A stretch of 64,000 nt of DNA from Deltaproteobacteria bacterium HGW-Deltaproteobacteria-2 (GCA_002840505.1 PHBC01000008.1:7193-71192); one strand, 5' to 3'. Shown: positions 3,250 to 39,820, counted from the first letter of the stretch. The notes: generated by a model not told the origin, from the letters alone. Program-made: numbers and translations.

Positions 3250-3257
3250 GAGACGGG

Positions 3258-4950: not shown

Positions 4951-4961
4951 GGAGTAATATT

Positions 4962-5495: not shown

Positions 5496-5500
5496 TAATC

Positions 5501-5698
5501 ATGGAAGGTTTATTAAGTACGGGAGAGGCTTATAAGAATAAGGCTTTGTCCGGTTTTATCAGGGAATCTGCGGACGAACAAAGAATAAACCAGCAAAATA
5601 AAGATTTAGCGGCTCAAGAACAAAACCAAACAGTATCATTGGCGGCTTCAGGCATAGGTGCTGCAGCGAGTATTGCGCTGATGATCGCCGCTTTATAG
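5501..5698 (+). CDS. small phage membrane-anchored protein
   Basis: 65 aa with a C-terminal hydrophobic segment (LAASGIGAAASIALMIAAL); tightly packed between neighbouring genes. Confidence 0.4.
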   Translation: MEGLLSTGEAYKNKALSGFIRESADEQRINQQNKDLAAQEQNQTVSLAASGIGAAASIALMIAAL

Positions 5699-5707: not shown

Positions 5708-7642
5708 ATGAGATCAACATTATCCAATCCGATTGATGCGGGAGTTAACACCTTCTCAAAGTTGATGGGTACGTTTAATCAATTGGAAGAATCCAAACAA
5801 AGGCGTGAGCTTTTGACACAGGAAGCCGCTGATCGCAAAATAAAAACCGAACGCGAGGGCGAAATATTTGAGCGCCAGAAAAAGAAATGGGGCGAAGAGG
5901 ACGAACAGAAACACGGACAGGAGAATTTGAACCTTCTGGAAATCGTCATGTCGAAAGCTCAGGCGGCAAAAACAAAAGGCGAGCCCTTTGACGTTACCAG
6001 TCTTTCAAAATCCGAACAGGACGCCATGATATATTTCCACGATCACATGGGGAGCGTCAATGGCGCAGATTACGGGAATGTATTGAAGTTTATGCAGAAT
6101 GTGGCGCCACAGGTTCAGGGGAAAAAAGGCCAGGTGCCTCTTGATGATCGGATAAGCAATACCATAACCACGGCTTTAGGGTTTACTCCCGACCGTTTAA
6201 ACATGGACGATCACGGTAATATACTGACAGGTAAGATCAAGAGCGCCGTAGTTGACGGCACGTCTCCGAATATGGAAATGGGACTGATTGTTGAGCGGGA
6301 AATCCCGCCGACACTACCCGGCAAACCCTATAAACATATTGGCGACAAGCAGGAAGTCTATGTCGCTCCAGACAGCAACCCGAAGAACATGATTGAAAAG
6401 GGCAACATTAATCTTAATGCCCGTCCAGTGGTTAAAAATCAAGATGGTTCAATCTCAACAGTTTTATCGTCGTCATTTGAACAAAACGGAAAGGAAGTTT
6501 TAATTCCGCTTGTAAGCGACGACGGCAGAATCCTGACAAGGGAAGAAGCCCTTAAACAGTGGAATGAATCAAAGACCGCTGAAAAACCCTACGGAAATAA
6601 TTTGGGCGTCTTTAATGATATTCCTTCTGCCAACGAGTACGCCCAGGAGTTACATAATAGCGAAATATGGAAAAAGGACAAAGAATATTACGGGCAATCG
6701 GTTAGTAAAGATATGTTGAAGCATACCGGCGGCGATCCTGATGCGCCCTTGACGATATTTCCCGCGCAATTAGCAGCCAGTAAATTCAGTATGCAAAAAG
6801 ACCTTGCTGATATGGTTGAACAGTTGGAAGCAAAACTCGGGGGAACAGCATTCTCGGAGAGAAAGCAAAAGATACGGGAGACCGTGGCCAATAATAAAGT
6901 TGTCAAAGATGCCCTGAAAGCGGTCGAGGCCGCACCCGCAGGAACAAATATAAATGATTTGCGTTCTCTCTTCATGCAGAAACTTCCCGAAACTATGCCG
7001 ATAAAAGAGCAAGTCGAATTAGCGAAAACCTTTATTCCGGAAAAAGAGAAGAAGAGCGAAGAGATGTATAAAACGGTTAAGGGCGTTGATATGATTTCTA
7101 AAGATGGCGGCGTAACGTGGGGTCCAAGGTGGTCGCCAAAGGAAAGGGATTTGACCGAGAATGGCGAGAAGATTAAGGCAAAAATGAAAACCTTCGATGA
7201 TCTCTTTGTCCAAACATACGGCGGACAGTTACCAACAGAAAAAGACCTTGAAGGGAATGTAAAAGCTCCTGATAAGAATACCATCTTATCAAAACTAGGG
7301 ACTTCTGAGGTTAAGGATAAGTTTGATAAAAACGGCAAGCCCATCACGCTACAGCAATTACACAACACCATGCAGCAGTATTATGAAGGGCTGGTAAGAG
7401 ACGGCGTACCTCCGGCTGAGGCACTTCAGAAAACAACGCAATTCGCTAATGACTTTGGGAACACCAGTAAAAAAGGTGCTTTCGATGTTAAAGGTATTCC
7501 TGAAGATAAGGTGAAGGATATATCTAATAAATCAAACAACGCTATAAAACTTGGCGCGAGAATACTCCAAAATCCAGATACCGGAGAAATTCGCGCTAAA
7601 TATCCTAATGGCAAGACTGAGGTTATTTGGAAAAAATCTTAA
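5708..7642 (+). CDS. large phage internal virion/ejection-type protein
   Basis: 644 aa, K/E-rich. Contains the block GNINLNARPVVKNQDGSISTVLSSSF..GKEVLIPLVSDDGRILTREEA, which I recall from phage tail and internal proteins. Lies immediately upstream of the giant ORF. Confidence 0.5.
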   Translation: MRSTLSNPIDAGVNTFSKLMGTFNQLEESKQRRELLTQEAADRKIKTEREGEIFERQKKKWGEEDEQKHGQENLNLLEIVMSKAQAAKTKGEPFDVTSLSKSEQDAMIYFHDHMGSVNGADYGNVLKFMQNVAPQVQGKKGQVPLDDRISNTITTALGFTPDRLNMDDHGNILTGKIKSAVVDGTSPNMEMGLIVEREIPPTLPGKPYKHIGDKQEVYVAPDSNPKNMIEKGNINLNARPVVKNQDGSISTVLSSSFEQNGKEVLIPLVSDDGRILTREEALKQWNESKTAEKPYGNNLGVFNDIPSANEYAQELHNSEIWKKDKEYYGQSVSKDMLKHTGGDPDAPLTIFPAQLAASKFSMQKDLADMVEQLEAKLGGTAFSERKQKIRETVANNKVVKDALKAVEAAPAGTNINDLRSLFMQKLPETMPIKEQVELAKTFIPEKEKKSEEMYKTVKGVDMISKDGGVTWGPRWSPKERDLTENGEKIKAKMKTFDDLFVQTYGGQLPTEKDLEGNVKAPDKNTILSKLGTSEVKDKFDKNGKPITLQQLHNTMQQYYEGLVRDGVPPAEALQKTTQFANDFGNTSKKGAFDVKGIPEDKVKDISNKSNNAIKLGARILQNPDTGEIRAKYPNGKTEVIWKKS

Positions 7643-7658: not shown

Positions 7659-10600
7659 ATGGCCGAGCCCAAACTCGATAACGGGTTTATTGATGTAACC
7701 GATCAAATTCAATCACAAGAGAGTTCTCTTCCTGACGGTTTCGTAGACGTTACCGACCAGATACCCAAAAAGAAAGAGCGATCCTCAGCCGGAGCATTTG
7801 TAAGAACACTTACGCGCGTACCGGAAAACCTTCTTGCTTCCGCTATTACGGCAGCGCAAGGGAAATCGGGTCCATCCGTGGCTAACCCTGATGTCGGCGA
7901 TAAGTTTGTCCAATTTGTGAATAAACGCAATAGAGAACTTTCTGAAGAGTATAAAGACACTGGAGACCTTATCCCCGGAATTATATCCAACGAAGATGTG
8001 GCCGGACTAGGGCAGAATCTTTCCTTCTCGGGCGTTTCCATGGGAGCCAGTGCCGCTGGCGCTCTTGTTCCCGTACCGGGAGTTAATATTGCAACTAGCA
8101 TGGCAGCAGGTGGCGCAACGGCTTATCGTATGCAGAGTTATCAGGCCATGAATGACTGGTTGACCAAAGTAAACGAAGAAAGCATTAAAAACTTTGGACG
8201 ACCGATCACACCGGAAGAAGAAGCAGTATTTAAGCGTAAATTTGACACTCTCGCCACTGAATCAGGTTTATGGGAAGCAGGGCCGGAAGCCGTCGGTAAT
8301 GTTCTGGAGCTGGCATTGATGGCAGGGAAAGGAACTTTGCCCGGTCGTATAGCAAGCATGATTCCCAAGGGTGTTCTCGGAAAGATTGTAAAAGGTGGCG
8401 CTCGTGCGGCCGGTATTGTTGGAACGGAAGAGGCAACGGAAACAGTTACTCAGATGGGACAGCAGAATGCCGAGGTTAAAGCCGGTCAGTCTAATGAACC
8501 TCTTCGCCAGTGGACAAGTCCCGACGATTGGTTGAAATCCGCGGGAGAAGTATTGCCAAGCGTACTGCTGTTATCTGGATTTATGACCGGTGGCGGTATG
8601 GCTTACAGGGGAATGAAAAAAGGAAAAGACGAAACAAAGAAAACCGACAAGCAAACGGAAACCCCTCAGTCCCCACAAAAGACAATGATCGAGCAACCGG
8701 AAGTAGAGATTGAGACATTCAAGCAAAAACTACTTTCCGGAAACCTTACTAAAGATGAAGCCCTGGCGCATAGAAAGAATATATTAAAAACCATGCCAGA
8801 GGCAGAGGACGCTATAAATAGTATTATCGTTGAAGCAGATACCAATAAATTATTTAAGGAGGCACAAAATGCCACGGAAAAAGAGCCAGAGGGTGATATC
8901 AGCGAACATAAGGGAACTGGTGGAGTCGGGGAAACCACAGAAACAAACAGTATCTCCGGAGAAGTGCAAGAAAAAGTAGATGTGCCGATTAATGAACCAG
9001 AAGATAACGCCCGTAAAGTGGACAATCTCAATAAGCAGTTGAGCAAAGTAAAGGGCGAAGGAAAGGCGGCAGTCGCAAGACGCAAAAAAATACAGGAGAG
9101 AATCGACGCTTTAACCCCTGCTGAGACTTCTACTATTGAGACACCGGAAGTAAAGGGCGCGGAGATCGTTGAACCTGCGGCAAATGCGGAAGTTTTGCCA
9201 CCTGAGATAACCGATGATCAAATGCTTGAAGCTATGCGTCCGGGAACGGATAAGTTTGAATTGGGTGGTCTTTACAGGCAGAAAGGTAAACCAAAGGCTA
9301 ATTCGATAATTATAAAAGGCATTGATGAAGCCGGCAAGATTGACGGCGCATATATCCATAAAGGAGGGTTGTTATCTCCTGCCAAATTTACAAAGGATGA
9401 ACTGATTCCTTTCGCTCCTGATGAAAAACAGGTTTCTAATGTGAAAGCCATGTTCGGGATTAAGACGCAAACAAAAGAACCCCTTACCACAGGCGAAATC
9501 ACGCCTATTCAGGATAAGTTTACAGGCAATCAGTTGGAAGCACCTAAAGAGCCATGGGAAATGACGAGGGAAGAATTTTCTGATTATTTATTCTCAATAG
9601 GAAAATCAGACAAGAAAGATTTTAAGTCACGCCAAGAAGCGGTAGCCCATGATAAAAAGCAGGCAAAAGAGCGGCAATCTTTATTAAAGGAAATAAAACC
9701 GACACCGGAACAGGTTGATAAATTAGAAAGTGATACTGGAATATCTATAAACAACACACATAAATATTTTATCGTGAAAGCCCTTTCCGAAGGTAAACTA
9801 GTTCCCCCGGAAGTCTTAAAGGATTATCCTGATCTGCAGAAGAAGGAATCCGCAACCCAAAAACCGGATCTTAAAAGAGTGATCGATGTTTACGGCAGAT
9901 ACCATTATATTGACACAAACGAATTAACGACCGATAGAAAAATCCTAAAAAGATATAATTCTAATGGAGAACGCCCTCTTGACGATACAGGACTTCACCG
10001 CGGGAATATTGTTGACGAAAACGATGCCGCGGCTGTTGAAAAAGCGAAAAAAACAGCAAGACTAAGAAGCCTCGAAAATAAAGCACAGAAAAAAATATTA
10101 TCACCAGAGGAATTGGAAGAGGCAAAAAAACTTAATCAAGAAATTACAAAGGAGGCCACCCCTAAGAAGAAAACCGAGACCGTGCTGAAGAAGAAACCAA
10201 AGAAGAACATCATGGAGAAAGCCCCTCCCGGCGGATGGACGGAAGCCGATAAGGTGCCGGAGAAATACAGGAAGAAAGCGGAACCAAAACCCGAAGTTAA
10301 ATATACTGCCAACGCTGATAAAGGCGGCAGGTTGATTGGCAAGAATCCAGACGGACATAATCTTTATGAACGTGGTGATGGTGTCCGATATTTCACTGAT
10401 GGACGTATAAGAGTAACCGAACCCGTTACAATGGCTATGACACGCGGCGGGGTGCAACCCGAGATTAATCCTGATAACCGCCGGGATCAGTGGAAGACGG
10501 AAGAGGAAATAGGAAGAACGGAAGAACCGGCAACGGTGGTTAAAAAAGAAGAAGACCTTTCCACGAAGTCAACTGGCGATCTGGTTAAAGATATGTTCGA

Positions 10601-13600
10601 TATTATCAATGAGCATATTGGAGAACGCGGCTCTATTTCCACCAAAGAACTTGACGAAACTCTTTATCAGAAATTAAAGCCTTACCTTGCTGAGATTGTA
10701 AACCGTGCGAAAGCGAAAGCCCTTGACGTAAGAGCTTATCTATTCGGTGCGGTTGATTCCATGCCGGAAGGAAAGGCGAAAAAGGTATATGAGGCAGCGG
10801 CGCGAAAATATGCCGATGAACTCGATGATGAACATTATGAGAGGTTAGCCGCAAAAGTTCCTGAATGGGTAAAACCCAATACAGATTTTGTTTTAACAAG
10901 CGGCTTGACCGCATACGTCGAAAGCATAAATGGCGATCAAATAACATGGAGAACTGGCCGCGATAGGCATACGGATTCGATAGAAAAGTTTTTAAGGTTT
11001 GCAGAAACGCCAAAGGCAAAGACCGAAACTATTGACAAAAACACAAAAAAGGATTATAATATAACCAAGGAAGGTGAGAAAAATGAACATCCCGCAAATG
11101 GCAGCACAGGCACGGGAACACTGGAAAGTGACGAATCCGGAAGTCTATCAGCAGATGGTAGAGGACAAGGCACTCGAAGGGGAGAGCGAAGCGGCGGCGA
11201 AACTGACAATGAGGGAAATGCAGACCTTGATGCAGGGGGGCTCGACGGAAGCGGAAGCGTGGCAGGACAGTCGTCACCTGTTCATCTTCAAGACAGCGGA
11301 ACAGATAGCGAAGTCTTACCGTCCGGACCATCGGCAGTAGAAGAGCCGGCCAGTGAGCCGCGCACCATTCAATTATCCGGTGTCAATCCCGGAAATTACC
11401 GAATAACAGAAGAAGATGATATTGGCAGTGGAACCCGCGGCCAGAAGATTGACCGCAATATTGCGGCGATTCGTCTTATCAAGAAACTGGATCAGGAACA
11501 CCGTTATCCCACCAAAGAAGAACAAGCCGTACTCGCCAAATATGTCGGATGGGGCGGGATAAAGAACGTCTTTGACGAGACCAGTAACAAACCTCAGGAC
11601 CAGAGAGCTTATTCCGACCTTAAAGAATTACTGACAAAAGAAGAATTCTTTGAGGCGCGTCAATCCGTTTTAAACGCACATTACACAAGCCCCCAGGTTA
11701 TACGTTCCATATACAAAATAATGCGTCATTTCGGGTTTACGGGCGGTAATATCATTGAACCTACCTATGGATCAGGCAATTTTATCGGCCTCATGCCGGA
11801 AGATATGGCCGCTTCTTCCAAGTGGTACGGCTCAGAACTCGATCCGATCACGGCCAAAATAGGGCAATACCTCTATCCCGAGTCTCAGCTTATTCATTCC
11901 GGATTTCAGACGGCAGAATTCCCTTACGGTAAATTCGATGCGGCCGTCGGCAATCCTCCTTTTGGCGACGTAAGGATATCCGACACGCGGAAAGACAGGG
12001 CGGAAATCAGCCGGATGAAGATACACAATTACGTCATATCCAAAACCGGTATGCACTTAAAGCCGGGCGGAGTAATGGGTATGGTTATCACTACCCGTTT
12101 TCTTGACACGGCAGATCCCGAAGCGAGAGAATTCCTGGCAAAACAATTCAAATTACTCGCGGCAATCCGTTTGCCTAATGACGCCTTTGCCAAAAACGCA
12201 GGAACGGAAGTCACGACCGACCTTGTATTTTTCCAGAGATTAATGCCTGGCGAAGAACCGAATCTATCCGCTAAGTGGCTGACGACCGGCGCGACCATGA
12301 CCAACAAGGGCGGCGAAGAAATCACGCTGAATAAGTATTTTGCAAAGAATCAGGACTTAATGTTAGGCGAGCCCTCCATGAAAGGCACGATGTACGGCGG
12401 CGCCTGGAAAGAAGGCGGCAAGGGTGAGTTTACCCTCAACAAACGAGAGGGCGAAGATATTGAAAGCCTGATTGATAATTTACTTGAAAACTCAATATTG
12501 GCAGAATTTAAAGATGTCGCTAAAAGCAATAATGACAAACTGGATGCCGCCGCTCTTTCTCTTGTACCCAATAAAGAAGATGTTGCCGTCGGCGGCTTCT
12601 TCATGGACAAAGACCGGATTTATATGCGGGAGGATAACGACGAATACGGCAATCCGACCTACGCGCGCCTGAGTCCTAAAACAAAATGGACAGAGAAGCA
12701 ATTACTCGGCGAAACCCGCTATATGCGTATTAAGGGAATGTTGGAAATCAGGGCAAAGGCTTATGAACTTGTCAATGCAGAGCGTTTTGATCTTAGCAAT
12801 ATTGAACAGTTAAGGAAACAACTCAATTTCCTATATGATAATTTTGTAAAACAGCACGGATTTATAAATGAAAGTTCCAACTTCTCTTTAATGTCTGACG
12901 ATGTAAAAATAGAATTCGGCCTGGAAATAGACTTTAAAAAGGAAATAACCAAAGCCAAAGCCAAAACATTAGGGATTAAGCCGTCTCCGGCCAGCGCGGT
13001 AAAATCAACTATCCTTAATGAAAGAATGTTTTACCCTGAGAAAGAAATCCTTTACGCTAAAGATTCCGCAGACGGTTATAATATTTCATTATCTCAAAAG
13101 GGTAAACTGGACATTGATTATATTGCTAAACTGACGGGAACACCGAAAGAAAGTGTTATCGCCGATCTCGCTAAGGATGGTTTGATCTATCAAGATCCTG
13201 ATACAAAAGAATGGATTCAGGAGGATGAATATCTCTCCGGGAATGTTAAGGGGAAATATAAAAAGGTTGAGGGGAAAGAGGGATTTGAGAAAAACGCAAA
13301 GGCCTTAAAAGCAGTCTTCCCCGCCGATGTTCCAACGGAAAGCATATTCGCCAATCCCGGAGCGACATGGATTCCGGAAAAGGTCTATGAGCAATTCGGC
13401 CATTTTATCGGGGTAACAAACCCGAGCGTCTCCATTTACAGAAACAACGGCCACTTTGTCATGCGCTCGTCCGGTGAAAAGCAGAATGATATTAACGTCG
13501 CCTGGCAGAACAAATATTACGCTCTTTCCGATATTTTCAGCGCCGTCGCCAACAATAAGGTACTGATCGCCTGGGACGGTACGGGAGACGAGCGCATCCA

Positions 13601-16600
13601 GAACAAAGAACAGACCGCGGAACTGGCGACCATCGTCAAGAACGTGAGAAGCACATTCTTTGATTGGATATTCGCTGACGACACAAGAGCAAAAGAATTA
13701 AACAAGATTTACAATGATACGCAGAATACTCACGCGAAAAGGAAAAACGACGGTAAGCTCCTTCATACCGTAGGCGCTTCTCCGGCTGTTATTTTACGTA
13801 ATACCCAAAGAGACGCCGCTTGGAGGATCATTCAATCGAAAAGGGTATTGCTTGATCACTGCGTAGGCGCCGGTAAAACCTATACGATTATAACCGGCGT
13901 TCAGGAACGGGTACGCATGGGATTGACACGCAAGGCTATGATCGCCGTGCCGAATCATCTTGTCGGCCAGTGGGCGGCTGATTATGTGCGCCTTTATCCT
14001 GGCGCGAGAATACTCGCGGCAACCAAGAAAGACTTCTCAAAGCCAAACCGCCGCCGGCTCTTCGCGCGAATCGCCACAGGCAAATATGACGCGGTTATCG
14101 TCGGGCATTCTTCTTTCGGCTTTATTCCGCTCGAGCCGGAAGCCATTACCAATTTGATGATGGAAGAAATCGCGCAGTTAGAACAGGCCGAGGCGCAGGC
14201 GAAAGCCGACGGCAACAAGAGGCTGGTTAAGACATTGGCAAATAGAATCGCCAAAAAACGTGAGAAGATAACTGAATTGCTCGGACGGCCCAAGGATAAT
14301 GTCACGACCTTTGAAGGCATGGGGATTGATCACTTAGTCGTTGATGAATCGCACGAGTTCAAGAACCTTGAATACTCGAGCGCCATGCAGAACATTACCG
14401 GCATGGGTAATCCCATGGGCTCCAAGAGAGCCTTTGATATGTACGCAAAAATCCGCTGGCTTACAGCCCAAAAGGACTATGCGCTTAATTTTGCCACTGG
14501 AACGCCGATCAGCAATTCCCTCGTCGAAATGTATGCGCTTCTCCGCTACATGAACAGAGATGCCCTTTACGCCAGAGGCATTGATGCCTTTGACTCATGG
14601 GCGAATACCTATGCCAGCATAGAACCGAGAATTGAATATACAGCCTCGCAGAAATTAAAGCAGCGGACAGTTATGGCGACATTCAATAACCTGCCTGAGC
14701 TCCTGCAATTATATGAGGAATTCGCCGATATCGTGACCATGCCGGATTTGAAACGCATTTACGCCGAGCAGATCAGAGAGAGAAACGCCCGGACCGGCGG
14801 AAACGAAAGCGAAGAATTTCCGATACCGAAAGTCAAAGACGGTGGCCGCGTCCTCGATGTGGCAGAACCTTCTCAGGAACAGATTGAATATGTTGATTAC
14901 CTTGTCGCCAGAGCGGAACGCCTGGAAGAACTCGGCCGGAAGAACGATCCAAAAATCGATAATCACTTATGGATTATGAGCGACGCCCGGAAGATGGCGC
15001 TTGATGTTCGGCTGGTTGATCCCACGGCAAAAGAAAACCCGAACAATAAAATTAACCGGGCAACAAAAAAGATAAAAGACATTTACGACAGAACGGCAAA
15101 GGACAGGGGCGCTCAGTTAGTTTTTTGCGATTTGTCCACTCCTGCAGGTACGGCACAGAAAAACGCCGCTGTATTTATCAGAGAAGCATTAAATAAAGCG
15201 CATTTGGAAAATGATGCACGAACCAAGGCAATATTGGATTCCTTATCTACTTATCAGGAAAAATGGGGATATCTCAGGAACAGACTTGAAGCGGAGATAG
15301 AAGCGATTACCGATCATTCACAGGCCGAAACTGATCAATATATGAAACGCCGTGAAGAAATCGAAGAATATCTTGAAAAGGTTACGGATGATGTCACCGC
15401 AGACTTAACTACCGCCGACACGGGATTTTCAGTTTATGATGAAATGAAATCTAAACTGATCATGATGGGAATTCCAGAGGGCGAAATCAAATTCATCCAT
15501 AGTGCCAATACCGAACAGCAAAAGGAAGATTTGTTTGCAATGGTCAATTCTGGCCAGGTTCGCGTATTGCTCGGATCGTCTCAGAAGATGGGCGCAGGGA
15601 TGAATGTTCAGGAGAGACTTGTCGCCCTTCATCACATGGACGCTCCATGGAGGCCGTCGGATGTTGAGCAGAGAGAAGGCCGTCTCGTCCGCCAGGGAAA
15701 TAAACTTTATTATATCGATCCTACAGGATTTAAAGTTGAGATAATTGCTTATTCCACGGCCAACACATTCGACGCGGTTATGTGGCAGATACTCGCCAGA
15801 AAAGGCGGTATGCTCGATGATTTCAGAAGCGGCCGGCGCAGTGTCGAAGAAGTCAATACCGATTCGGCCAGTTATTCCGAGTTTATGGCGGAGACTACCG
15901 GCAACCCGGCATTTAAAGAAAAATTCCAGTTAGAGAACGATATTCAAACACTGGAGGCGATTAAGAACAGGACGGCCACGCGGTTGCGTTCGTCACAGCA
16001 GAGCCTTGATTATAATAAAGACGCCCGGATAGAGGCGCAGAAGGAAATAGAAAAGCGCGATAAAGTAATCGATGATCTTAGGGGCCAGTCAACATTTACC
16101 TTTGAAGGGAAGAAATATAAAGATAATGCCAAAGCCCTTGTTGAGAAAGAGGCCGACGAGATTGCCGCGTATAATGCACTGGTTAATAAAAAATATAATA
16201 CGGAAATCGATGCGGCAACGGCAGAAGCATTTAAAAAAGAAGGCTTGACTCCCCCTGAAAGGCCTAGCCAATCTGATTATCATTCTGGTAAAATGAGCGT
16301 TAATGAATATAATGCCGCGCAAGTTGAGTATAGTAAATTTTGGGGAGACGAGAAAAATACTAAGATAGTTGCTGATGCCATCAAAGGTATTAAGAAACCA
16401 ACGAATAAACACTTCCATTCTAGCAAGTTGGCCAAGAGCGATAAATCCGGTGTTATAGCGGCAGGTCTGAAAATAGTGGAGGAAATTAACGCACTCGATG
16501 AAGGAGAATCCTTTACATATCAACTAGGAAATACAGAGATTGAGATTAAAAAACTTGAAAGCGGATGGACGGATAAAAAAGCAGAAAACCCCGTGCAGTT

Positions 16601-19600
16601 ATGGGATTATGTGATTACTGCTGACGGAATGTTTTTAAGACGCCTTGACCATGATAAATCTTTTGATGAAAGAGATATATGGAATCTTTTGAATGTTGAA
16701 TATGTAAGTAATAAAATGGCAGAACATCGCGATTTTGCCGCAAACTATATTGCTCGCATGGACCAATCCGACGAGATATCAAGACACACTCTTAAGTCTC
16801 TTCAATTCAAAGATGAAGAAAAATTACAGAAGATGAAAACCCGCTATCGGGAAGTATTAACTGAGGTTCAAAAAGCGGAGGAAGAAATAGGAGCGCGCCG
16901 GGCGTCAACCGGAAATAAATATATTAGTAAGGATCGTCCGAGATTCCCGGATGGTGTTTGGGTATCAAAAAAACATCGCAATGAAACCGTCGAATCGCCG
17001 GAAGTGGATATCGACGAAGACATTGAAACGATAAAGGCCAAACGAGACGCGATCAAGCATGATTTGTTTGATGAAGAGGGCAATGATCCAAATGAAGTAG
17101 CACAACAATTATTCAATAAAGGATATGAGCGATTAACCGATAGTGAAACCGTTCAGGTCCAAGATACAATCGCCTTCAAATATGCAGAATTCGCACGATA
17201 CGAGGCCATTCTTTCACAGGAAGACGAAGCACATATTGAGAATGCCCAGGATAAACTTGATATGGCGCAAGACATTTGGAACGAATGGCACGAAGGCGAG
17301 GCCTATCCGCAGGAAATAAAACTCGCACAAAAAGTTATTAACAGTATCCGGTCCGGGCAGGGGCGCTTATTCAATGGCCAGCAGTATGCTGTTCGAGAAA
17401 CTGGCACGTTCCAACTTCCCACACTTTCCGAAGTTCAGGACGTTTTTAAAGGCCAGGAAGTAACTCAAACTTCTGATGGTAAGATATGGATTAAAACAGC
17501 AGGCGGCAAATATCTTACCATTCTGAATGTTGATCATATTGAACCTGATAAAATTACAATGAATATAGGTTATAGTCGTTCTTCTCTTAAACCTACAGAG
17601 AAAATAGCAGGCGCATACCTGAAAGTAGGAAACGAAGGGCAGATAAGACTTGTCCGAGGACAGGCCGATAAACAAACACTTTACCACGAATCAGTTCATT
17701 TCATGGAAGATTTGGGTATTCTCCGCCCTCTGGACGTTGCCGCTTTAAGAGGCCATATTAAGAGACTCGTAAGAGAAGGGAAGTTTCAGACTCAGAACAA
17801 AGACGATATAGGCGGCTCGGAAGATAGAGCTAACTTTATTGCGGACGCTTTAACTTCTCCACCAGTGGGACCAATCCGACGCATAATAAACAGAATTCAG
17901 GACTTCATTGATAAACTGGTGAATCTCTTTAGTAGAACCACAAGAGGGGTTATCCGGGATATTAAGAGCGGAGAAATCTATAACGAGAAGCCGACAATCA
18001 GTGGAGCTTTAAGGGATATATACGACGAGCCGGGAGTAGAGACGGGGCGGTATAACGTCAATCCACCAATAGCAGATACCTTCTTTTCTCAACTATCAAA
18101 GGTCGTAGAGGTAAAACTGCCGAACGCCGGAACTCCTGAGCAATTCCGCAACATGATCACCGCTTGGGCGAATAAAGGTGAATTCAAAACCGATGAACTG
18201 AAATGGTCAGGGCTCAATGAATGGTTAGACGGGCAGACCGGAAAAATCAGTAAGAAGGACGTTGTTGATTATCTGGCACAGAATCAGGTACAGATTCAAG
18301 AGATAACGAAAAATGGTCAAGATATTCTTGCCGAAAAGATAAGAATAGAAGCAGCGTTCCAATCGGTAGGATGGGAAATCGGCAGGGAAATGGGCGGCGA
18401 TATTGAGGTAACAGACCGAAACGGAGAACTCGTTGAACCTGAAACCGTTAGAGAAGAAGCTCCTGAATTGTACGATATGGGGATCAGATATTCCGAAATT
18501 AATGATGGGGAAGCAATAGAAGATGTAAAATTTTCTTCATACCAACTCCCCGGCGGAGAGAATTACAGAGAGTTGTTGCTGACGCTGCCGGGCAAAGTTG
18601 AAATACCAGAAGGATGGGAAGCGGAAAAGAACGAAGATGGTACATGGGATGTTTTTGACGAAGAAGGTAATCCCATGCAGGTTGACCAAGAAGCAAAAAC
18701 TGAACGTGATGCTATCCTTGCCGTTGCCGGGAACAGAGACAAATTAGGCGACGCTTACAAATCCCCCCATTGGGAAGAACCCAACGTTCTCGCTCACATC
18801 CGAATGAATGACCGTGTTGATGCCGAGGGAAATAAGGTACTGTTTCTGGAAGAAGTGCAGAGCGATTGGCACCAAGAAGGTAGGAAGAAAGGATATGGAA
18901 TTGATACATCAAAATGGAAAGCAACTATCAATCCATCTTTCCAAGGAGAATGGGCAGTTGTAAATGAACATCTCGATAGGATAGGATACGCACCATTGTC
19001 TGCCGCTAAAACGTCACAAGAAGCAATACAATATGTAGCAAAAAATCAAGTGACTGGTATTCCCACCGCCCCCTTCTCAAAGACCTGGCCGGAACTGGTA
19101 ATGAAACGTATGCTCAGGTACGCTGCGGAAAACGGTTACGATAAACTAGCCTGGACAACGGGAGAACAGCAGGCTGAGAGATATGATTTAAGTAGAGAAG
19201 TTTTTTTAATTAATTACAGTAAGGAAAAAAATGCGCCCGATGATATTAGACACGTAGAAGTAGTTACTAAAAATCATGGCGAACCGTCATTCGATGTAGA
19301 TATTACTACCGGCAACATTAAAAGCGAAGGAATGTTTCAAGGCAAGCAACTCGACGAAGTTGTAGGCAAAGAGATTGCACAAAAAATAATGGAAAGTGAT
19401 GGTAAATTTACAAAGCTTTCCGGCCTCGACCTCAAAGTCGGCGGCGAAGGGATGAAAGGCTTCTATGATTCCATCATTCCCTCATTCCTGAATAAGTACG
19501 CGAAGAAATGGGGCGCGAAGGTTGGGGAAATTAAAATAGAAACAGTCCCTAGAAATGATCAAGAAGCGGCATGGATCATTGATGCTGAAAACGTAGCGGC

Positions 19601-22514
19601 TGACGAAAATGAAGAACAAGAAGTTGTTGTACGAGATTCAAGAACAATGGAAGGTGTTCACGAACCATTTAATAGTTTACGGGAGGCAGAAGAATGGTAC
19701 GATAAAAATAATCCAAGCAAGGATGAAACGATTGTCCATTCCCTTGATATCACTCCCACTATGAAACGTGATGTCCTTTATCAAGGGCAACCGATGTATG
19801 CGCTCCGTAACCAAACCGATCCGCCCGTCTCCAATGATCCGAAGGTTCTCAATCTTTACCTGAAAGACGAGACGGATGCTATTGTTCAAACCATAGTTAA
19901 CAAACTCAAGCCTAAAAATATGACATGGCTAGAGACCATGCTGAAATCTCCCGAATGGTTTGACCATCCGCAAATAGGTAATATCGTCAAACTCTTCATG
20001 CGCGACCGGAACGAAATCTATCACGAAACATTCAACGACCTGAATATGACCGACGACGTTGACTCTCCGGAAAGCACAGTCACGGAAGCGGCCAAAGCCC
20101 TTAAGAATAAAGGTTTGTCTCTAACCGAGAGAATGACCGGCAAAGTTTCAAAGGAATATCAGCGCCTACAGGATATCATTGACGAGGGAGATACCTCATG
20201 GAAACGAAACCTGAAAGAACCTCTGGAAAAACAGATAGCGGACTTCGAGGCTCATATCCGGAAAGAGGGCGCCACTGACGACACTATCAGGGTATGGAAA
20301 CTTTATAGAGAATCTTACGATAAAGCCCTTGACCTGCAGACCAGACAACTAAGAAACATGATTGCGGAGATAATCGAAGAAGCTCATTTCAAAGGCGAGA
20401 CGCCGGACCTTTCCGAAATGAAGCAATCCCTCAAAGGCGCTCTTGCTATGATGGAAGAATGGAGAGGCTTCTACGCTCCACGTCTCAGGGAAATGGGAAA
20501 CTGGAAGGTTCAGGCCTATAAAGAGCATGGGCCCATGAAGGAAAACAGGGAATGGTACAGGGAGCACCGCAATTCAGAACTGGCCGCGCAAAGACTTTCC
20601 AAGAAGTTAGAACGTGAGGGATGGAAGATATTTAACGTCGGAGAAATTGAGCGAATCCCTGAGACGATTTATCAGGACGTAAACGCCATGGCCACGGCAA
20701 AATTGATTGATACGGCCCTTGAAAAACTGAGTAAGAAGAGCGAACTGAAAAATAATATGACCGCTCAGTTCAATGAAGAAATACTAAGGGAAGTTTCCAA
20801 CGCGATCAAAGCGCGTGGTTATCGGTCCACAATGATTCACAGAGGGCGCGGAGTTATCCGGGGATTTGTTGAAGATCCGATTCAAAGGCATTTACAGTAT
20901 ATTAATAACCTTTCCGGTGGGATTTCCAAAGCCCGTACCGCGCGTATGGCCATGCAAGAACTCCTGGGCGATAAGGTAATGGGCCAGCAGATCGGCGGCA
21001 TCGATCCGGTTAAGGACCCGAAAGCCTTTGCCGTCGCACAAGACTATATTCAGGAGCAACTTAGAAACGCCGACTCTTCCGACCGGATAATAGGCCTTGC
21101 AAAGAGTATTGCAACCTTTAAATTCCTGGGTTTCAATCTCCGGTCTCTGGCTGTCAATATGACCGCTATAATGACCACAGCGCCGTCGGCAATCCACCAA
21201 TACGCTATGGGCGGAAATGGTTCAATGGCCAGAGTAATGAACGAACTGGCCCGGGCAGGTAAAGACTACGGTATGGTAATGGCCGGTAGAAAATTACACA
21301 ATGCCGACGAGCAGGCCTTTATTGACGATGTTCATAAGAAGGGTTGGGACGACGCGCAATATACAAGAGAAGCTTTGGGCGAATTGTCAAAGACTCATTC
21401 ACGGATTTGGTCTTCGATGATGGACGGCTCGATGTGGATGTTCGGTAAATCGGAAAAGTGGAATCGCGGCACTACAATTTTGGCGGCCTATAGACTTGCA
21501 CGGAAGAAGGGCATGGGCCACGTTGAGGCAGCAGAAGCAGCAAAGACTTCTTCCGATAAAGCGCACGGCGTTTACGGCAAGAGCACTATGCCGATGTGGG
21601 CGCAAGGGACAAACCCCGCAGCGAAAATAGGCCAGATGGCTTATGTATATTCTAAATTCGGGCATAATTATTTACAGATGCTCTATGATTTGGGCATCAA
21701 AAAACATAACATCAAAGCGCTTATGTTTGCTTTCCTCTCTCCGTTAATACTAGCAGGAGCGGCAGCGCTTCCCTTTAAAGACGTTCTTTTCGCTTTCGCC
21801 GGAGTAATATTAAGATCATTGTTTGGTGAAGATAAAGATCCGGAGAAGTGGGTTTGGGATATAATAAGAGAACACCTGGGCGCGGATGCTGAAAAAATAG
21901 GGCGCCATGGACTGACCGGAGCGGCCGGGATTGATATATCCGGATCATTAAGCATTGGAATAGGCATACCGAAGAACTTTATTGATCTTACGGGAGCTAT
22001 CGGCGGGGTATTTACAGAGGGGAAAGAAGCCATTGAGAATATGGGCCGTGGAGATTTTGGGAAAGCGGCAGAACATTTATTACCTTCCGGTGCTTCTAAT
22101 ATTGTGAGGGCGTTCAGAGAGAATAAAGAAGGTGTTACGACACGCAATAATCGCCGCGTATGGAACGAAGAGGGTAAACCTTTTGTGCCAGATATCGGCG
22201 CGAGTGTGACCAGAGGTTTAGGTTTCCGATCTACTGATCAGGCTATTTTATCTGAAAGGACGTGGGAAGGGCACAGGGAACAGGCAACTATGGCCGAGAA
22301 ACGTAGTGCTATCTACGAGAGATATCGCGCGTGGATGATTGGGGGACGTAAAAACAATGACGAGTATAAGAGTATAATTAGAGATGCGAGGGAATTTAAC
22401 GCCGCCGCTAAAGATATGAGGGGTGTGCCGCGCATAACCTCTGATTCCTTAAGAAGCCAGCGACGACAATTATCGCATCCGTCAAAAAACGAAAGGGCCA
22501 TACTGAGAGATTAA
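7659..22514 (+). CDS. giant (4951 aa) polyvalent phage protein: N-terminal hydrophobic/virion module, N6-adenine DNA methyltransferase, SNF2/DEAD-like helicase, HExxH module, conserved SDWHQ/AWTTGEQQ module, hydrophobic C-terminal module
   Basis: Uninterrupted ORF with SD AAGGAGG. Methyltransferase motifs: IIEPTYGSGNFIG (about 11750-11790) and GNPPFG (11949-11966). Helicase motifs: Walker A GAGKT (13866-13880), DESH box (14343-14354) and motif VI QREGRLVRQGN (15669-15701). HESVH lies at 17685-17699. Several hydrophobic helices lie at about 21100-22000. Confidence 0.8.
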   Translation: MAEPKLDNGFIDVTDQIQSQESSLPDGFVDVTDQIPKKKERSSAGAFVRTLTRVPENLLASAITAAQGKSGPSVANPDVGDKFVQFVNKRNRELSEEYKDTGDLIPGIISNEDVAGLGQNLSFSGVSMGASAAGALVPVPGVNIATSMAAGGATAYRMQSYQAMNDWLTKVNEESIKNFGRPITPEEEAVFKRKFDTLATESGLWEAGPEAVGNVLELALMAGKGTLPGRIASMIPKGVLGKIVKGGARAAGIVGTEEATETVTQMGQQNAEVKAGQSNEPLRQWTSPDDWLKSAGEVLPSVLLLSGFMTGGGMAYRGMKKGKDETKKTDKQTETPQSPQKTMIEQPEVEIETFKQKLLSGNLTKDEALAHRKNILKTMPEAEDAINSIIVEADTNKLFKEAQNATEKEPEGDISEHKGTGGVGETTETNSISGEVQEKVDVPINEPEDNARKVDNLNKQLSKVKGEGKAAVARRKKIQERIDALTPAETSTIETPEVKGAEIVEPAANAEVLPPEITDDQMLEAMRPGTDKFELGGLYRQKGKPKANSIIIKGIDEAGKIDGAYIHKGGLLSPAKFTKDELIPFAPDEKQVSNVKAMFGIKTQTKEPLTTGEITPIQDKFTGNQLEAPKEPWEMTREEFSDYLFSIGKSDKKDFKSRQEAVAHDKKQAKERQSLLKEIKPTPEQVDKLESDTGISINNTHKYFIVKALSEGKLVPPEVLKDYPDLQKKESATQKPDLKRVIDVYGRYHYIDTNELTTDRKILKRYNSNGERPLDDTGLHRGNIVDENDAAAVEKAKKTARLRSLENKAQKKILSPEELEEAKKLNQEITKEATPKKKTETVLKKKPKKNIMEKAPPGGWTEADKVPEKYRKKAEPKPEVKYTANADKGGRLIGKNPDGHNLYERGDGVRYFTDGRIRVTEPVTMAMTRGGVQPEINPDNRRDQWKTEEEIGRTEEPATVVKKEEDLSTKSTGDLVKDMFDIINEHIGERGSISTKELDETLYQKLKPYLAEIVNRAKAKALDVRAYLFGAVDSMPEGKAKKVYEAAARKYADELDDEHYERLAAKVPEWVKPNTDFVLTSGLTAYVESINGDQITWRTGRDRHTDSIEKFLRFAETPKAKTETIDKNTKKDYNITKEGEKNEHPANGSTGTGTLESDESGSLSADGRGQGTRRGERSGGETDNEGNADLDAGGLDGSGSVAGQSSPVHLQDSGTDSEVLPSGPSAVEEPASEPRTIQLSGVNPGNYRITEEDDIGSGTRGQKIDRNIAAIRLIKKLDQEHRYPTKEEQAVLAKYVGWGGIKNVFDETSNKPQDQRAYSDLKELLTKEEFFEARQSVLNAHYTSPQVIRSIYKIMRHFGFTGGNIIEPTYGSGNFIGLMPEDMAASSKWYGSELDPITAKIGQYLYPESQLIHSGFQTAEFPYGKFDAAVGNPPFGDVRISDTRKDRAEISRMKIHNYVISKTGMHLKPGGVMGMVITTRFLDTADPEAREFLAKQFKLLAAIRLPNDAFAKNAGTEVTTDLVFFQRLMPGEEPNLSAKWLTTGATMTNKGGEEITLNKYFAKNQDLMLGEPSMKGTMYGGAWKEGGKGEFTLNKREGEDIESLIDNLLENSILAEFKDVAKSNNDKLDAAALSLVPNKEDVAVGGFFMDKDRIYMREDNDEYGNPTYARLSPKTKWTEKQLLGETRYMRIKGMLEIRAKAYELVNAERFDLSNIEQLRKQLNFLYDNFVKQHGFINESSNFSLMSDDVKIEFGLEIDFKKEITKAKAKTLGIKPSPASAVKSTILNERMFYPEKEILYAKDSADGYNISLSQKGKLDIDYIAKLTGTPKESVIADLAKDGLIYQDPDTKEWIQEDEYLSGNVKGKYKKVEGKEGFEKNAKALKAVFPADVPTESIFANPGATWIPEKVYEQFGHFIGVTNPSVSIYRNNGHFVMRSSGEKQNDINVAWQNKYYALSDIFSAVANNKVLIAWDGTGDERIQNKEQTAELATIVKNVRSTFFDWIFADDTRAKELNKIYNDTQNTHAKRKNDGKLLHTVGASPAVILRNTQRDAAWRIIQSKRVLLDHCVGAGKTYTIITGVQERVRMGLTRKAMIAVPNHLVGQWAADYVRLYPGARILAATKKDFSKPNRRRLFARIATGKYDAVIVGHSSFGFIPLEPEAITNLMMEEIAQLEQAEAQAKADGNKRLVKTLANRIAKKREKITELLGRPKDNVTTFEGMGIDHLVVDESHEFKNLEYSSAMQNITGMGNPMGSKRAFDMYAKIRWLTAQKDYALNFATGTPISNSLVEMYALLRYMNRDALYARGIDAFDSWANTYASIEPRIEYTASQKLKQRTVMATFNNLPELLQLYEEFADIVTMPDLKRIYAEQIRERNARTGGNESEEFPIPKVKDGGRVLDVAEPSQEQIEYVDYLVARAERLEELGRKNDPKIDNHLWIMSDARKMALDVRLVDPTAKENPNNKINRATKKIKDIYDRTAKDRGAQLVFCDLSTPAGTAQKNAAVFIREALNKAHLENDARTKAILDSLSTYQEKWGYLRNRLEAEIEAITDHSQAETDQYMKRREEIEEYLEKVTDDVTADLTTADTGFSVYDEMKSKLIMMGIPEGEIKFIHSANTEQQKEDLFAMVNSGQVRVLLGSSQKMGAGMNVQERLVALHHMDAPWRPSDVEQREGRLVRQGNKLYYIDPTGFKVEIIAYSTANTFDAVMWQILARKGGMLDDFRSGRRSVEEVNTDSASYSEFMAETTGNPAFKEKFQLENDIQTLEAIKNRTATRLRSSQQSLDYNKDARIEAQKEIEKRDKVIDDLRGQSTFTFEGKKYKDNAKALVEKEADEIAAYNALVNKKYNTEIDAATAEAFKKEGLTPPERPSQSDYHSGKMSVNEYNAAQVEYSKFWGDEKNTKIVADAIKGIKKPTNKHFHSSKLAKSDKSGVIAAGLKIVEEINALDEGESFTYQLGNTEIEIKKLESGWTDKKAENPVQLWDYVITADGMFLRRLDHDKSFDERDIWNLLNVEYVSNKMAEHRDFAANYIARMDQSDEISRHTLKSLQFKDEEKLQKMKTRYREVLTEVQKAEEEIGARRASTGNKYISKDRPRFPDGVWVSKKHRNETVESPEVDIDEDIETIKAKRDAIKHDLFDEEGNDPNEVAQQLFNKGYERLTDSETVQVQDTIAFKYAEFARYEAILSQEDEAHIENAQDKLDMAQDIWNEWHEGEAYPQEIKLAQKVINSIRSGQGRLFNGQQYAVRETGTFQLPTLSEVQDVFKGQEVTQTSDGKIWIKTAGGKYLTILNVDHIEPDKITMNIGYSRSSLKPTEKIAGAYLKVGNEGQIRLVRGQADKQTLYHESVHFMEDLGILRPLDVAALRGHIKRLVREGKFQTQNKDDIGGSEDRANFIADALTSPPVGPIRRIINRIQDFIDKLVNLFSRTTRGVIRDIKSGEIYNEKPTISGALRDIYDEPGVETGRYNVNPPIADTFFSQLSKVVEVKLPNAGTPEQFRNMITAWANKGEFKTDELKWSGLNEWLDGQTGKISKKDVVDYLAQNQVQIQEITKNGQDILAEKIRIEAAFQSVGWEIGREMGGDIEVTDRNGELVEPETVREEAPELYDMGIRYSEINDGEAIEDVKFSSYQLPGGENYRELLLTLPGKVEIPEGWEAEKNEDGTWDVFDEEGNPMQVDQEAKTERDAILAVAGNRDKLGDAYKSPHWEEPNVLAHIRMNDRVDAEGNKVLFLEEVQSDWHQEGRKKGYGIDTSKWKATINPSFQGEWAVVNEHLDRIGYAPLSAAKTSQEAIQYVAKNQVTGIPTAPFSKTWPELVMKRMLRYAAENGYDKLAWTTGEQQAERYDLSREVFLINYSKEKNAPDDIRHVEVVTKNHGEPSFDVDITTGNIKSEGMFQGKQLDEVVGKEIAQKIMESDGKFTKLSGLDLKVGGEGMKGFYDSIIPSFLNKYAKKWGAKVGEIKIETVPRNDQEAAWIIDAENVAADENEEQEVVVRDSRTMEGVHEPFNSLREAEEWYDKNNPSKDETIVHSLDITPTMKRDVLYQGQPMYALRNQTDPPVSNDPKVLNLYLKDETDAIVQTIVNKLKPKNMTWLETMLKSPEWFDHPQIGNIVKLFMRDRNEIYHETFNDLNMTDDVDSPESTVTEAAKALKNKGLSLTERMTGKVSKEYQRLQDIIDEGDTSWKRNLKEPLEKQIADFEAHIRKEGATDDTIRVWKLYRESYDKALDLQTRQLRNMIAEIIEEAHFKGETPDLSEMKQSLKGALAMMEEWRGFYAPRLREMGNWKVQAYKEHGPMKENREWYREHRNSELAAQRLSKKLEREGWKIFNVGEIERIPETIYQDVNAMATAKLIDTALEKLSKKSELKNNMTAQFNEEILREVSNAIKARGYRSTMIHRGRGVIRGFVEDPIQRHLQYINNLSGGISKARTARMAMQELLGDKVMGQQIGGIDPVKDPKAFAVAQDYIQEQLRNADSSDRIIGLAKSIATFKFLGFNLRSLAVNMTAIMTTAPSAIHQYAMGGNGSMARVMNELARAGKDYGMVMAGRKLHNADEQAFIDDVHKKGWDDAQYTREALGELSKTHSRIWSSMMDGSMWMFGKSEKWNRGTTILAAYRLARKKGMGHVEAAEAAKTSSDKAHGVYGKSTMPMWAQGTNPAAKIGQMAYVYSKFGHNYLQMLYDLGIKKHNIKALMFAFLSPLILAGAAALPFKDVLFAFAGVILRSLFGEDKDPEKWVWDIIREHLGADAEKIGRHGLTGAAGIDISGSLSIGIGIPKNFIDLTGAIGGVFTEGKEAIENMGRGDFGKAAEHLLPSGASNIVRAFRENKEGVTTRNNRRVWNEEGKPFVPDIGASVTRGLGFRSTDQAILSERTWEGHREQATMAEKRSAIYERYRAWMIGGRKNNDEYKSIIRDAREFNAAAKDMRGVPRITSDSLRSQRRQLSHPSKNERAILRD
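11083..11340 (+). CDS. candidate nested gene in the +1 frame of the giant ORF (85 aa helical protein)
   Basis: SD-like AAGGAAGGTGAG (11067-11078) lies 4 nt before the ATG at 11083. The product is MNIPQMAAQAREHWKVTNPEVYQQMVEDKALEGESEAAAKLTMREMQTLMQGGSTEAEAWQDSRHLFIF.... It is non-repetitive, while the main frame here reads a G/S/D/E low-complexity linker. Confidence 0.4.
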   Translation: MNIPQMAAQAREHWKVTNPEVYQQMVEDKALEGESEAAAKLTMREMQTLMQGGSTEAEAWQDSRHLFIFKTAEQIAKSYRPDHRQ

Positions 22515-23877: not shown

Positions 23878-24198
23878 ATGGATACTTTCTTTAAGATTAT
23901 CAATGTGGTTATGGCGATTGTTGTCTTGTATATCGGGTATAAGCAAACCCAAAAGTATCGCAATGAGGACAAGAAAGAGAAACTGCAATCTGCTCTTGAT
24001 GAATCCCACCGTAACGAACTTAAGAAATCTATTAAAGGCATTTCGGACACTCTTAAAAAGACCACAGAAGATATATTCTTTATGTTTGATAATCACGGAC
24101 ATGAGATACTTTGCAATAACGAGTCGTGTACGAAACCGAGAACGGGGAAAATTTTCATAGCTCCGCCTCAGCAGAGAAGGGAGAGCGACAGGCTATGA
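23878..24198 (+). CDS. lysis-cassette membrane protein (single N-terminal TM plus charged coiled region; holin, antiholin or spanin-like)
   Basis: N-terminal TM segment FFKIINVVMAIVVLYIGY. The stop overlaps the endolysin start (ATGA). Confidence 0.4.
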   Translation: MDTFFKIINVVMAIVVLYIGYKQTQKYRNEDKKEKLQSALDESHRNELKKSIKGISDTLKKTTEDIFFMFDNHGHEILCNNESCTKPRTGKIFIAPPQQRRESDRL

Positions 24199-24677: not shown

Positions 24678-24686
24678 GGTGATTTT

Positions 24687-39753: not shown

Positions 39754-39784
39754 ATTTTCCGCTTCTGAAGAATTAACAACAATA

Positions 39785-39820
39785 AAGAACCCCGTGGCTT
39801 ACTGCGGGGTTCTTCTTTTT
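39785..39820 (+). terminator. intrinsic terminator
   Basis: AAGAACCCCG-10 nt loop-CGGGGTTCTT followed by CTTTTT. Confidence 0.7.

Follow-up and report, generated by a model that had tools for sequence, protein, structure and literature searches.

Polyvalent proteins, as defined by Iyer 2017 (PMC5512222), combine many unrelated enzymatic domains in a single polypeptide beside late genes and are injected together with the DNA, the archetype being DarB of phage P1 with its LPD36-methyltransferase (MTase)-SWI2/SNF2 dyad. DarB (2255 amino acids; aa) is carried in the virion, requiring DarA, Hdf, DdrA, DdrB and Ulx for packaging, and acts in cis, with cis protection of the incoming DNA put forward as a proposal (PMC5512222). 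Here a giant protein related to DarB is described from a 64,000-nucleotide stretch of the Deltaproteobacteria bacterium HGW-Deltaproteobacteria-2 genome (PHBC01000008.1:7193-71192), referred to throughout as the window. An open reading frame (ORF) of 4951 codons in the window most probably encodes a giant ejection protein, an internal virion protein of a podovirus prophage of the F116/Bcep22/933W type that resides in a Smithella-like bacterium, with enzymatic passengers mounted on a conserved chassis.

In podoviruses, T7 gp16 and N4 gp50 occupy the same genomic slot as this giant gene and are helical virion-core proteins able to carry passengers into the cell. The passenger is a transglycosylase in T7 gp16 and an RNA polymerase in N4 gp50; those of the window protein are a methylase-helicase and a peptidase instead. 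PBC5 p23 and the giant BcepMigl protein YP_007236815 have been placed among the internal virion protein (IVP)-D (T7 gp16) homologues of the F116 structural group, joined profiles being required to reach E=8e-19 (Hardies 2016). The same study found that IVP-D homologues carry cytoplasmic passenger domains, N4 gp50 being a virion RNA polymerase in an IVP-D homologue and H66 gp60 joining IVP-D homology to a methylase-type domain (Hardies 2016). A giant DarB-like or PLxRFG gene has also been described in the papers on Bcep22-like phages, Serratia phage Parlo and Lastavirus, and in JC1 the 4515-aa gp69 was recovered from CsCl-purified virions with 51 unique peptides. An ejection protein with antirestriction cargo is the already published view of this protein class (PMC4819975; PMC5512222; PMC9144972).

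The window protein resembles the DarB-like or PLxRFG-type giants, which include the LASTA 'PLxRFG protein' (4369 aa), the proteins of PEp14 (4914 aa) and VvAW1 (3640 aa), the 'structural protein' of 8P (5145 aa) and gp75 of Burkholderia phage Bcep22 (4602 aa), the last of these sitting among genes annotated as virion-associated. Like the giants of the F116/Bcep22 group, it is of similar size, comes from the final large gene of the virion module just ahead of lysis and has a tubular-tail-B homologue upstream, with the gene order being that of Bcep22, BcepMigl, PEp14, SopranoGao and 8P. A C-terminal PLxRFG domain is common to the window protein and those of SopranoGao, LASTA, PEp14, 8P, PBC5, Parlo and POI1126. 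In contrast, the lytic transglycosylase and acyltransferase domains reported in the Bcep22-like, PEp14 and Parlo proteins were not detected in the window protein, and BLAST found nothing in its aa 1-1045 and 2833-4350 that resembles the F116/Bcep22-group giants. Further differences are the tail fibre gene located between the giant gene and the lysis genes in the window, and the host, a Smithella-like anaerobe.

The likeness to P1 DarB lies in the colinear arrangement of MTase followed by SNF2 helicase, whereas P1 is a myovirus and DarB lacks the PLxRFG/IVP-D domain, the HExxH module and any counterpart of the conserved segment called module E below. As in the polyvalent proteins of Iyer 2017, many unrelated enzymatic domains stand beside late genes, among them the dyad and a zincin-like metallopeptidase (MPTase); unlike those proteins, module E and the N- and C-terminal chassis domains match no Pfam LPD or polyvalent model.

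A single uninterrupted reading frame

The ORF listing and the translation of the window gave one ORF at 7659..22514 (+), stop codon included, with an ATG start, a product of 4951 aa and a predicted mass of 556 kDa. There were no internal stops in this translation, and a strong ribosome binding site, AAAGGAGG, lies 8 nt 5' of the ATG. At a GC content of about 45% a run of 4951 stop-free codons (roughly 0.95^4951) excludes a chance origin, and the identical product has been called on 12 public contigs (NCBI, JGI, ENA and Logan), the longest of 807 kb, which argues against a disrupted gene or an artefact of assembly. The single 14.9-kb ORF claimed in an initial annotation of this DNA is therefore uninterrupted, its continuity being backed by independent assemblies. 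Megablast of the giant gene against phages and Escherichia coli genomes gave no match.

Every motif quoted in that annotation was located in the translation: GNPPFG at aa 1431, GAGKT at 2070, DESH at 2229, QREGRLVRQGN at 2671, HESVH at 3343, HWEEPNVLAHIR at 3704, EEVQSDWHQ at 3731 and AWTTGEQQAERYDL at 3831. It also described hydrophobic modules at both termini; these exist as hydrophobic stretches, but are only modest. Outside the enzyme cores hydropathy analysis identified aa 120-155 and 291-316 alone at the N-terminal end, and aa 4476-4512, 4680-4724 (Kyte-Doolittle 2.0, transmembrane-like) and 4750-4786 alone at the C-terminal end.

The DarB-type methyltransferase-helicase unit

The enzymatic centre of the protein (aa 1241-2770) opens with an LPD36-like helical region and a gamma-class N6-adenine MTase (11379..12758, +), assigned by motifs and Pfam. 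In the MTase the sequence EPTYGSGNF (aa 1367-1375) precedes NPPF (aa 1432-1435), with the Pfam Eco57I model matching at E=6.5e-8 (33 bits, cut-off 25.3) and N6_Mtase at E=4e-4 (20.3 bits, cut-off 20.4). Upstream of the MTase, GWGG (aa 1297-1300; compare GxG[GAS]) is placed as expected for LPD36, the LPD36 profile itself giving no match. There follow a middle region (in newer Pfam, a winged-helix domain and DUF8437) and an SNF2-type superfamily 2 helicase (12759..15968, +), also assigned by Pfam, with SNF2-rel_dom, ResIII and Helicase_C all above their cut-offs, precomputed matches to PF28553, PF28554 and PF28555, and helicase motifs I, II and VI (GAGKT, DESH and QREGRLVRQGN) intact.

The giant protein matches PHROG 10089 ('DarB-like antirestriction') at 1468 bits and aligns with P1 DarB in three colinear BLASTP segments (E=1e-17, 8e-8 and 8e-9; identity 19-26%), the MTases of the two proteins being 26% identical (E=1e-17). 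Pfam, PHROG 10089 and P1 DarB therefore agree with the N6-adenine MTase and SNF2 helicase of the initial annotation. When the MTase-helicase part was used in tblastn it found 145 phage records, the best being 36-40% identical over >90% of the query and belonging to Klebsiella phages SopranoGao and LASTA, Pseudomonas phages Itty13 and 8P, Erwinia phage PEp14, Vibrio phage VvAW1, Ochrobactrum phage POI1126, Agrobacterium phage Atu_ph08 and Sinorhizobium phage PBC5. Identity to Bcep22 gp75 over this part is 32%, such that the dyad is 32-40% identical over about 1600 aa across SopranoGao, PEp14, VvAW1, 8P, Bcep22 gp75 and others.

The C-terminal PLxRFG and probable IVP-D-type domain

The protein ends in an all-helical 'PLxRFG'/IVP-D-type domain (aa 4051-4951; 19809..22511, +) with an NCBIfam core at aa 4271-4939, this segment covering positions 2-667 of the 681-position profile NF032893 ('PLxRFG domain') at 145.4 bits against a cut-off of 100. 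The transmembrane-like hairpin at aa 4680-4724 (nt 21696-21830) lies within this core. A piecewise Pfam search of aa 4040-4951 (E<=5) gave no match. Using tblastn the C-terminal domain matched the C-end of PBC5 p23 (orf23) at E=4e-10, with further C-end matches to the giants of vB_KpnP_ZX1, SopranoGao, LASTA, Skulduggery, POI1126, Parlo, Atu_ph08, PEp14, Pavtok and Itty13.

The AlphaFold2 (AF2) model of aa 4054-4951 is almost all-helical, with a predicted local distance difference test score (pLDDT) of 77 and a predicted template modelling score (pTM) of 0.73. Foldseek found 68 BFVD models that match it at E<=1e-3, some being the final pieces of giant viral proteins whose annotation names LPD, MTase, helicase, ART-PolyVal or zeta-toxin domains and others stand-alone proteins of about 1400 aa from podoviruses ICP2 (E=3e-9), CW02 and P12053L. 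Also matched were 'internal virion protein D' of Roseobacter phage CRP-4 (E=4e-7, template modelling score 0.43) and members of the phiRIO-1 gp37 group. The proposed fusion of the enzymes to an ejection-type module is thus supported by the NF032893 match, by the homology to the PBC5 p23 C-end and by the fold match to 'internal virion protein D'.

A chassis with exchangeable passengers

A HMMER scan with aa 4054-4951 against 1.84 billion cluster representatives (50%-identity clusters) defined a chassis family of 2238 representatives at E<=1e-3, 512 of them at E<=1e-30, in which the C-terminal domain is almost always at the extreme C-terminus of proteins of roughly 1000 to 5868 aa. Among the best 150 of these 2238 representatives, the set to which all module counts below refer, 25 are at least 4000 aa and 8 at least 4951 aa long, such that the size of the window protein is high and not exceptional.

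What lies in front of the shared C-terminal domain varies. The MTase-helicase dyad is present in 13/150 representatives, the HExxH module in 38/150, module E in 23/150 (about 15%) and the N-terminal domain in 14/150, including the colinear giants P0034, P0066, P0143, P0152 and P0154. In P0034, P0152 and P0154 the order is N-terminal domain, dyad, HExxH module and C-end, while P0066 has the N-terminal domain, dyad, module E and C-end, with other relatives carrying ART-PolyVal, LPD, InPase, SLT and other modules. The ends of the protein are conserved and its middle is exchangeable.

The closest relatives make the exchange most apparent. P0001 (2452 aa, partial, from a 'Candidatus Omnitrophica' metagenome-assembled genome; MAG) and P0002 (1355 aa) match the window protein at 70-80% identity across the HExxH module, module C and the C-terminal domain, with other cargo between; in P0001 the position of module E is occupied by a second peptidase-like site, HEFGH, together with a short ART-like segment. 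Close relatives with different cargo indicate that the window protein is one arrangement of a fixed chassis with shuffled passengers. The P0001/P0002 pattern suggests that modules were exchanged recently and that phage contigs have been binned into unrelated MAGs.

The remaining modules

The HExxH or zincin-like metallopeptidase module (aa 3242-3465; 17382..18053, +) contains HESVH at aa 3343-3347 and a downstream E3388. Across 40 aligned sequences of the family, conservation is 97% at H3343, E3344 and H3347 and 100% at E3388. An HExxH motif with a downstream Glu is the gluzincin pattern given for the MPTase of polyvalent proteins (PMC5512222); no Pfam profile matched aa 3250-3500 (E<=5) and a PDB sequence search of this segment gave no match either.

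Module E (aa 3466-4050; 18054..19808, +) is conserved and unannotated, being 30-38% identical to about 20 polyvalent proteins and characterized by the motifs LPGGENYRE, SxHWxxPNVLAHxR, EExQSDW, GYDxxAWxxGxxQAxRYxL and GxDLKVGGEGMKxFYD, within which LPGGENYRE, HWxxPNVLAHxR, EExQSDW and GGEGMKxFYD are invariant. Among isolated phages it was found in Dfl-JY45, HTVC028P, Mel-JY33 and Nsp-JY18 only, unannotated save for two 'lysin' labels. It has no Pfam match (aa 3440-4060, E<=5) and no PDB sequence match, and its AF2 model has a pLDDT of 64. Repeated Foldseek matches to GNAT structures in the PDB were non-significant (best E=0.13) and a GNAT fold is not claimed.

Between the helicase and the metallopeptidase lies module C (aa 2884-3116; 16308..17006, +), which is 76% identical to P0002 and is contiguous with the helicase in P0084 and P0152 too. 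Module C has no Pfam or PDB match and no function is assigned to it from these sources; a piecewise Pfam search (E<=5) of aa 2800-3300 likewise found nothing.

At the other end of the protein a conserved Gly/Ala-rich N-terminal domain (aa 20-335; 7716..8663, +), containing two moderately hydrophobic stretches, is 47-59% identical to the N-ends of P0024-P0026 and gives a weak match near the N-end of the LASTA PLxRFG protein. It is followed by a highly charged, poorly conserved region (aa 336-1240; 8664..11378, +; K+E+D+R 34%, grand average of hydropathy -0.94) with short conserved islands, pieces of which are common to 6-8 representatives only, aa 947-1077 being about 60% identical to P0029, P0034 and P0066. 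This region has no Pfam or PDB match, nor did a piecewise Pfam search of aa 1-1150 (E<=5) give one. In all, four segments of the giant protein were compared with PDB sequences and none found a match.

Position of the gene in the prophage

All genes in the first 25.3 kb of the window (1-25.3 kb) are on the + strand and are phage late genes. The window opens within a tubular-tail-B (nozzle) homologue (1..656, +), of which it holds the 3' part, the start lying upstream and the full 512 aa being present in a public contig (L006). This protein matches phrog_511 at E=9e-58 with the part in the window and at E=3e-118 with the full protein, its best phage relatives being those of BcepIL02, Bcep22 (gp67), BcepMigl (YP_007236809), SopranoGao, LASTA, Itty13, Ralstonia phages and Stx phages. 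The BcepMigl protein YP_007236809 is listed as tubular tail B in the table of Hardies 2016. After it come genes for an immunoglobulin (Ig)-domain protein and a glycosyltransferase-like protein, four small ORFs, a 644-aa ORF and the giant ORF, with a tail fibre, a holin-sized ORF, a Hydrolase_2 endolysin and two small ORFs on its 3' side.

The prophage/chromosome junction lies between about 25.3 and 26.1 kb, with chromosomal genes from 26120. The genes from 26.1 kb on encode a KaiC-like protein, two sigma-54 activators, a CheB-CheR fusion, a fatty-acid cis/trans isomerase, malic enzyme, catalase and ResB, and the flanking chromosomal proteins cluster with those of Smithella, Smithellaceae and Syntrophaceae MAGs. 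Late phage genes followed by an ordinary Smithella-like chromosome indicate that the prophage is represented in the window by its right end.

The giant gene is the last and largest of the block that follows tubular tail B and precedes the fibre and lysis genes, as in T7 genes 12-17, the T7 order being tail genes 11 and 12, internal virion protein genes 13-16, fibre gene 17 and holin gene 17.5. The initial annotation had described a prophage with just this succession of tail genes, small proteins, 644-aa protein, giant ORF, fibre and lysis genes, and had placed the giant gene in the ejection-protein slot; the order matches, chromosomal genes do begin 3' of the lysis genes, and the position 3' of the tubular-tail-B homologue and 5' of the fibre and lysis genes is like that of T7 gene 16. 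It likened the layout to that of T7/phiKMV; the structural group of the phage is that of F116/Bcep22/933W instead.

Proposed role and alternative explanations

The most probable role of the ORF is that of a giant ejection protein delivering its passengers at infection. On the model of its homologues, the protein would be made late and packaged inside the capsid core alongside the small and medium-sized products of the upstream genes, and would then be ejected through the tail ahead of or along with the DNA. The helical C-terminal domain with its hairpin, perhaps together with the N-terminal domain and the 644-aa protein, may help to form a trans-envelope conduit, such that the passengers would arrive in the cytoplasm at the point of DNA entry. 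There the SNF2 translocase could move the N6-adenine methylase along the incoming DNA, with methylation or shielding in cis against type I restriction as proposed for DarB, while the HExxH...E zincin module may process the polyprotein into functional parts or cleave targets in the host. Module E would be a further enzyme-like passenger, its activity being unassigned.

Several observations weigh against this role. The packaging, ejection, methylation and protection attributed to the 4951-aa protein all derive from homology, and to our knowledge the biochemical mechanism of P1 DarB protection is itself unproven. The literal motif PL.RFG occurs nowhere in the giant protein, the aligned site reading YAPRLREMG (aa 4271-4280) where SopranoGao and PEp14 have YFPLARFG and 8P has YAPLSRFG; judging from this alignment the domain is conserved and the motif degenerate. 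A 24-sequence C-terminal alignment compared using hhalign was not significant against T7 gp16 alone (E=0.29), no PDB structure matches the C-terminal model (Foldseek best E=1.5), and no resemblance to known IVP-A, -B or -C could be detected in the small proteins encoded 5' of the giant gene. As these three results leave the IVP-D claim less than firm, membership of the C-terminal domain in IVP-D is likely and not proven here. The alignment was also not significant against the C-end of Bcep22 gp75 (hhalign E=0.15), such that the Lessievirus proteins verified by mass spectrometry demonstrably share the MTase-helicase part only.

A different use of the helicase, which would make the SNF2 module mainly a genome-internalisation motor, has to be considered. 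Anchored to the inner membrane through the IVP-D-type domain, the translocase would haul the phage DNA into the cell, taking the place of entry by transcription as in T7 and N4, and methylation would be a secondary activity. The union of a translocase and a channel-type domain with a transmembrane-like hairpin in one polypeptide is in keeping with this, as are the RNA polymerase embedded in the equivalent N4 protein, the ability of SNF2 enzymes to translocate on double-stranded DNA and the part ascribed to T7 gp16 in bringing the leading section of the genome into the cell. However, with a dyad in only 13/150 of the closest chassis representatives such a motor cannot be a general requirement for DNA entry, P1 DarB, a myovirus homologue without the chassis, has a genetic antirestriction phenotype, and the constant fusion to the MTase argues for a role in DNA modification, leaving a primary motor function unlikely. 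Of low probability too are two further readings, that the tethered translocase would pull the genome in while methylating it, and that module E would be a so far undescribed injected enzyme acting on the host or on a defence system.

It is very unlikely that the protein is essentially structural, a transient tail tube or core in which the enzyme-like segments are decayed, inactive relics. Such a view can draw on aa 336-1240 and 2771-3241, which have no recognisable fold or family, and on the low Pfam scores of the enzyme domains (24-33 bits), yet all the catalytic signatures are kept (EPxxGxGxF and NPPF; GAGKT, DESH and QREGRxxRQGN; HExxH...E, 97-100% across 40 homologues) and the 32-40% identity of the dyad over 1600 aa across distant phages points to selection on the whole module. 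The probability falls lower still for a cytoplasmic, non-virion enzyme of the prophage or its host, a domesticated restriction-modification- or defence-like protein (DISARM, BREX or type I/III-like) directed against superinfecting elements. Polyvalent proteins may indeed act against rival elements or be captured by hosts (Iyer 2017; PMC5512222), and PADLOC gave weak matches to DrmD and generic MTases. These matches are partial and score 18-37 bits (oMTase, MTase_II and DrmD) against 1468 bits for the phage DarB-like family, and on these scores a defence system was rejected; moreover the gene is co-directional within the late structural module, between tail and fibre/lysis genes, it encodes a virion-type C-terminal domain and there are no partner defence genes nearby.

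Neighbouring late genes

The 346-aa ORF at 598-1638 overlaps the end of the tubular-tail-B homologue. The public call in contig L006 (7921-8892) is of 323 aa and an exact look-up of the 346-aa version gave no match, the downstream start probably being the true one. The glycosyltransferase-like gene at 3258-3947 (phrog_1574; weak Glyco_tranf_2_3 match) lies inside the virion module between the tail and the putative internal virion genes, where the Bcep22-like phages have instead an acyl-CoA N-acyltransferase and a PAPS-reductase-like gene.

Four small ORFs of 147, 188, 177 and 65 aa (3944..5698, +) occupy what is, by position, the slot of the small internal virion proteins. They have no Pfam match, and their PHROG matches (phrog_611, phrog_596 and phrog_594) are all to families of unknown function; the 65-aa product has a hydrophobic C-end. 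No BLAST similarity was found between the small upstream proteins and the giant-gene neighbours in five reference phages (including Bcep22, PEp14 and SopranoGao). An IVP-A-type acetyltransferase, as in T7, Bcep22 gp69 and SopranoGao_10, was considered for the 147-aa protein and was unsupported, the protein not being detectably an acetyltransferase.

Directly 5' of the giant gene the 644-aa protein (5708..7642, +) is syntenic with Bcep22 gp74, PEp14 gp26 and a 652-aa gene of phage 8P, and by position and size is a candidate counterpart of T7 gp15 (IVP-C) or Bcep22 gp74. Searches of PHROG, Pfam and PADLOC with this protein gave no match. A segment at aa ~230-290, GNINLNARPVVKNQDGSISTVLSSSFEQNGKEVLIPLVSDDGRILTREEALKQW, may resemble a conserved small domain of other phage structural proteins.

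The tail fibre gene (22710..23774, +) encodes 354 aa matching many PHROG tail-fibre and collar families, with the Pfam domains Mtd_N and then Collar. Mtd_N is the N-terminal domain of the major tropism determinant of Bordetella phage BPP-1; no reverse transcriptase or template/variable repeat of a diversity-generating retroelement turned up in the window, no search having been aimed at them. The lysis cassette (23878..25265, +) consists of the 106-aa holin-sized ORF, the Hydrolase_2 endolysin, assigned by endolysin PHROGs and PF07486, and a 192-aa ORF. No tRNA genes were found in the window.

Bacterial chromosome beside the prophage

The right 38 kb of the window (26120-63882) include the cis/trans isomerase (44836-47190) and a large-subunit catalase (51627-53741), a catalase and a fatty-acid cis/trans isomerase being unexpected in a strict syntrophic anaerobe. 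The two sigma-54-activator genes (28626-30248 and 33216-35210) are paralogous, both encoding PAS and sigma-54-activator domains and matching phrog_7998 and Sigma54_activat, and between them lies a gene for a 917-aa CheB methylesterase-CheR methyltransferase fusion with a coiled coil and PAS_10 (30282-33035). Further on, ORFs at 39070-39753, 42127-43212 and 44113-44682 share a common C-terminal domain (phrog_7897 and phrog_15381, function unknown) and amid them is a 553-aa protein with Big_5 and ice-binding-like domains (40284-41945), such that 39070-44682 looks like a small paralogous surface-protein cluster.

Implications

The founding paper on Bcep22 is reportedly that of Gill in 2011. The picture drawn by Gill 2011, Hardies 2016 and Iyer 2017 is unchanged by the window protein, which provides a clean, large example of exchangeable enzymes on a fixed podovirus ejection-protein chassis. 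Three points go beyond the literature consulted. The chassis family is large, with about 2200 50%-identity clusters and members of up to 5868 aa, and relatives that are 70-80% identical carry different cargo, indicating that modules are swapped on a short time scale.

The third point concerns the host. We know of no cultured phages of Smithella-type syntrophic anaerobes, and the window protein is the first instance of such a protein in a host of this type to which the present analysis can point. Module E, which is well conserved, is a candidate new effector domain delivered by injection. If a tethered translocase does draw in the genome, podoviruses would have a third way of bringing their DNA into the cell, alongside entry driven by RNA polymerase as in T7 and N4.

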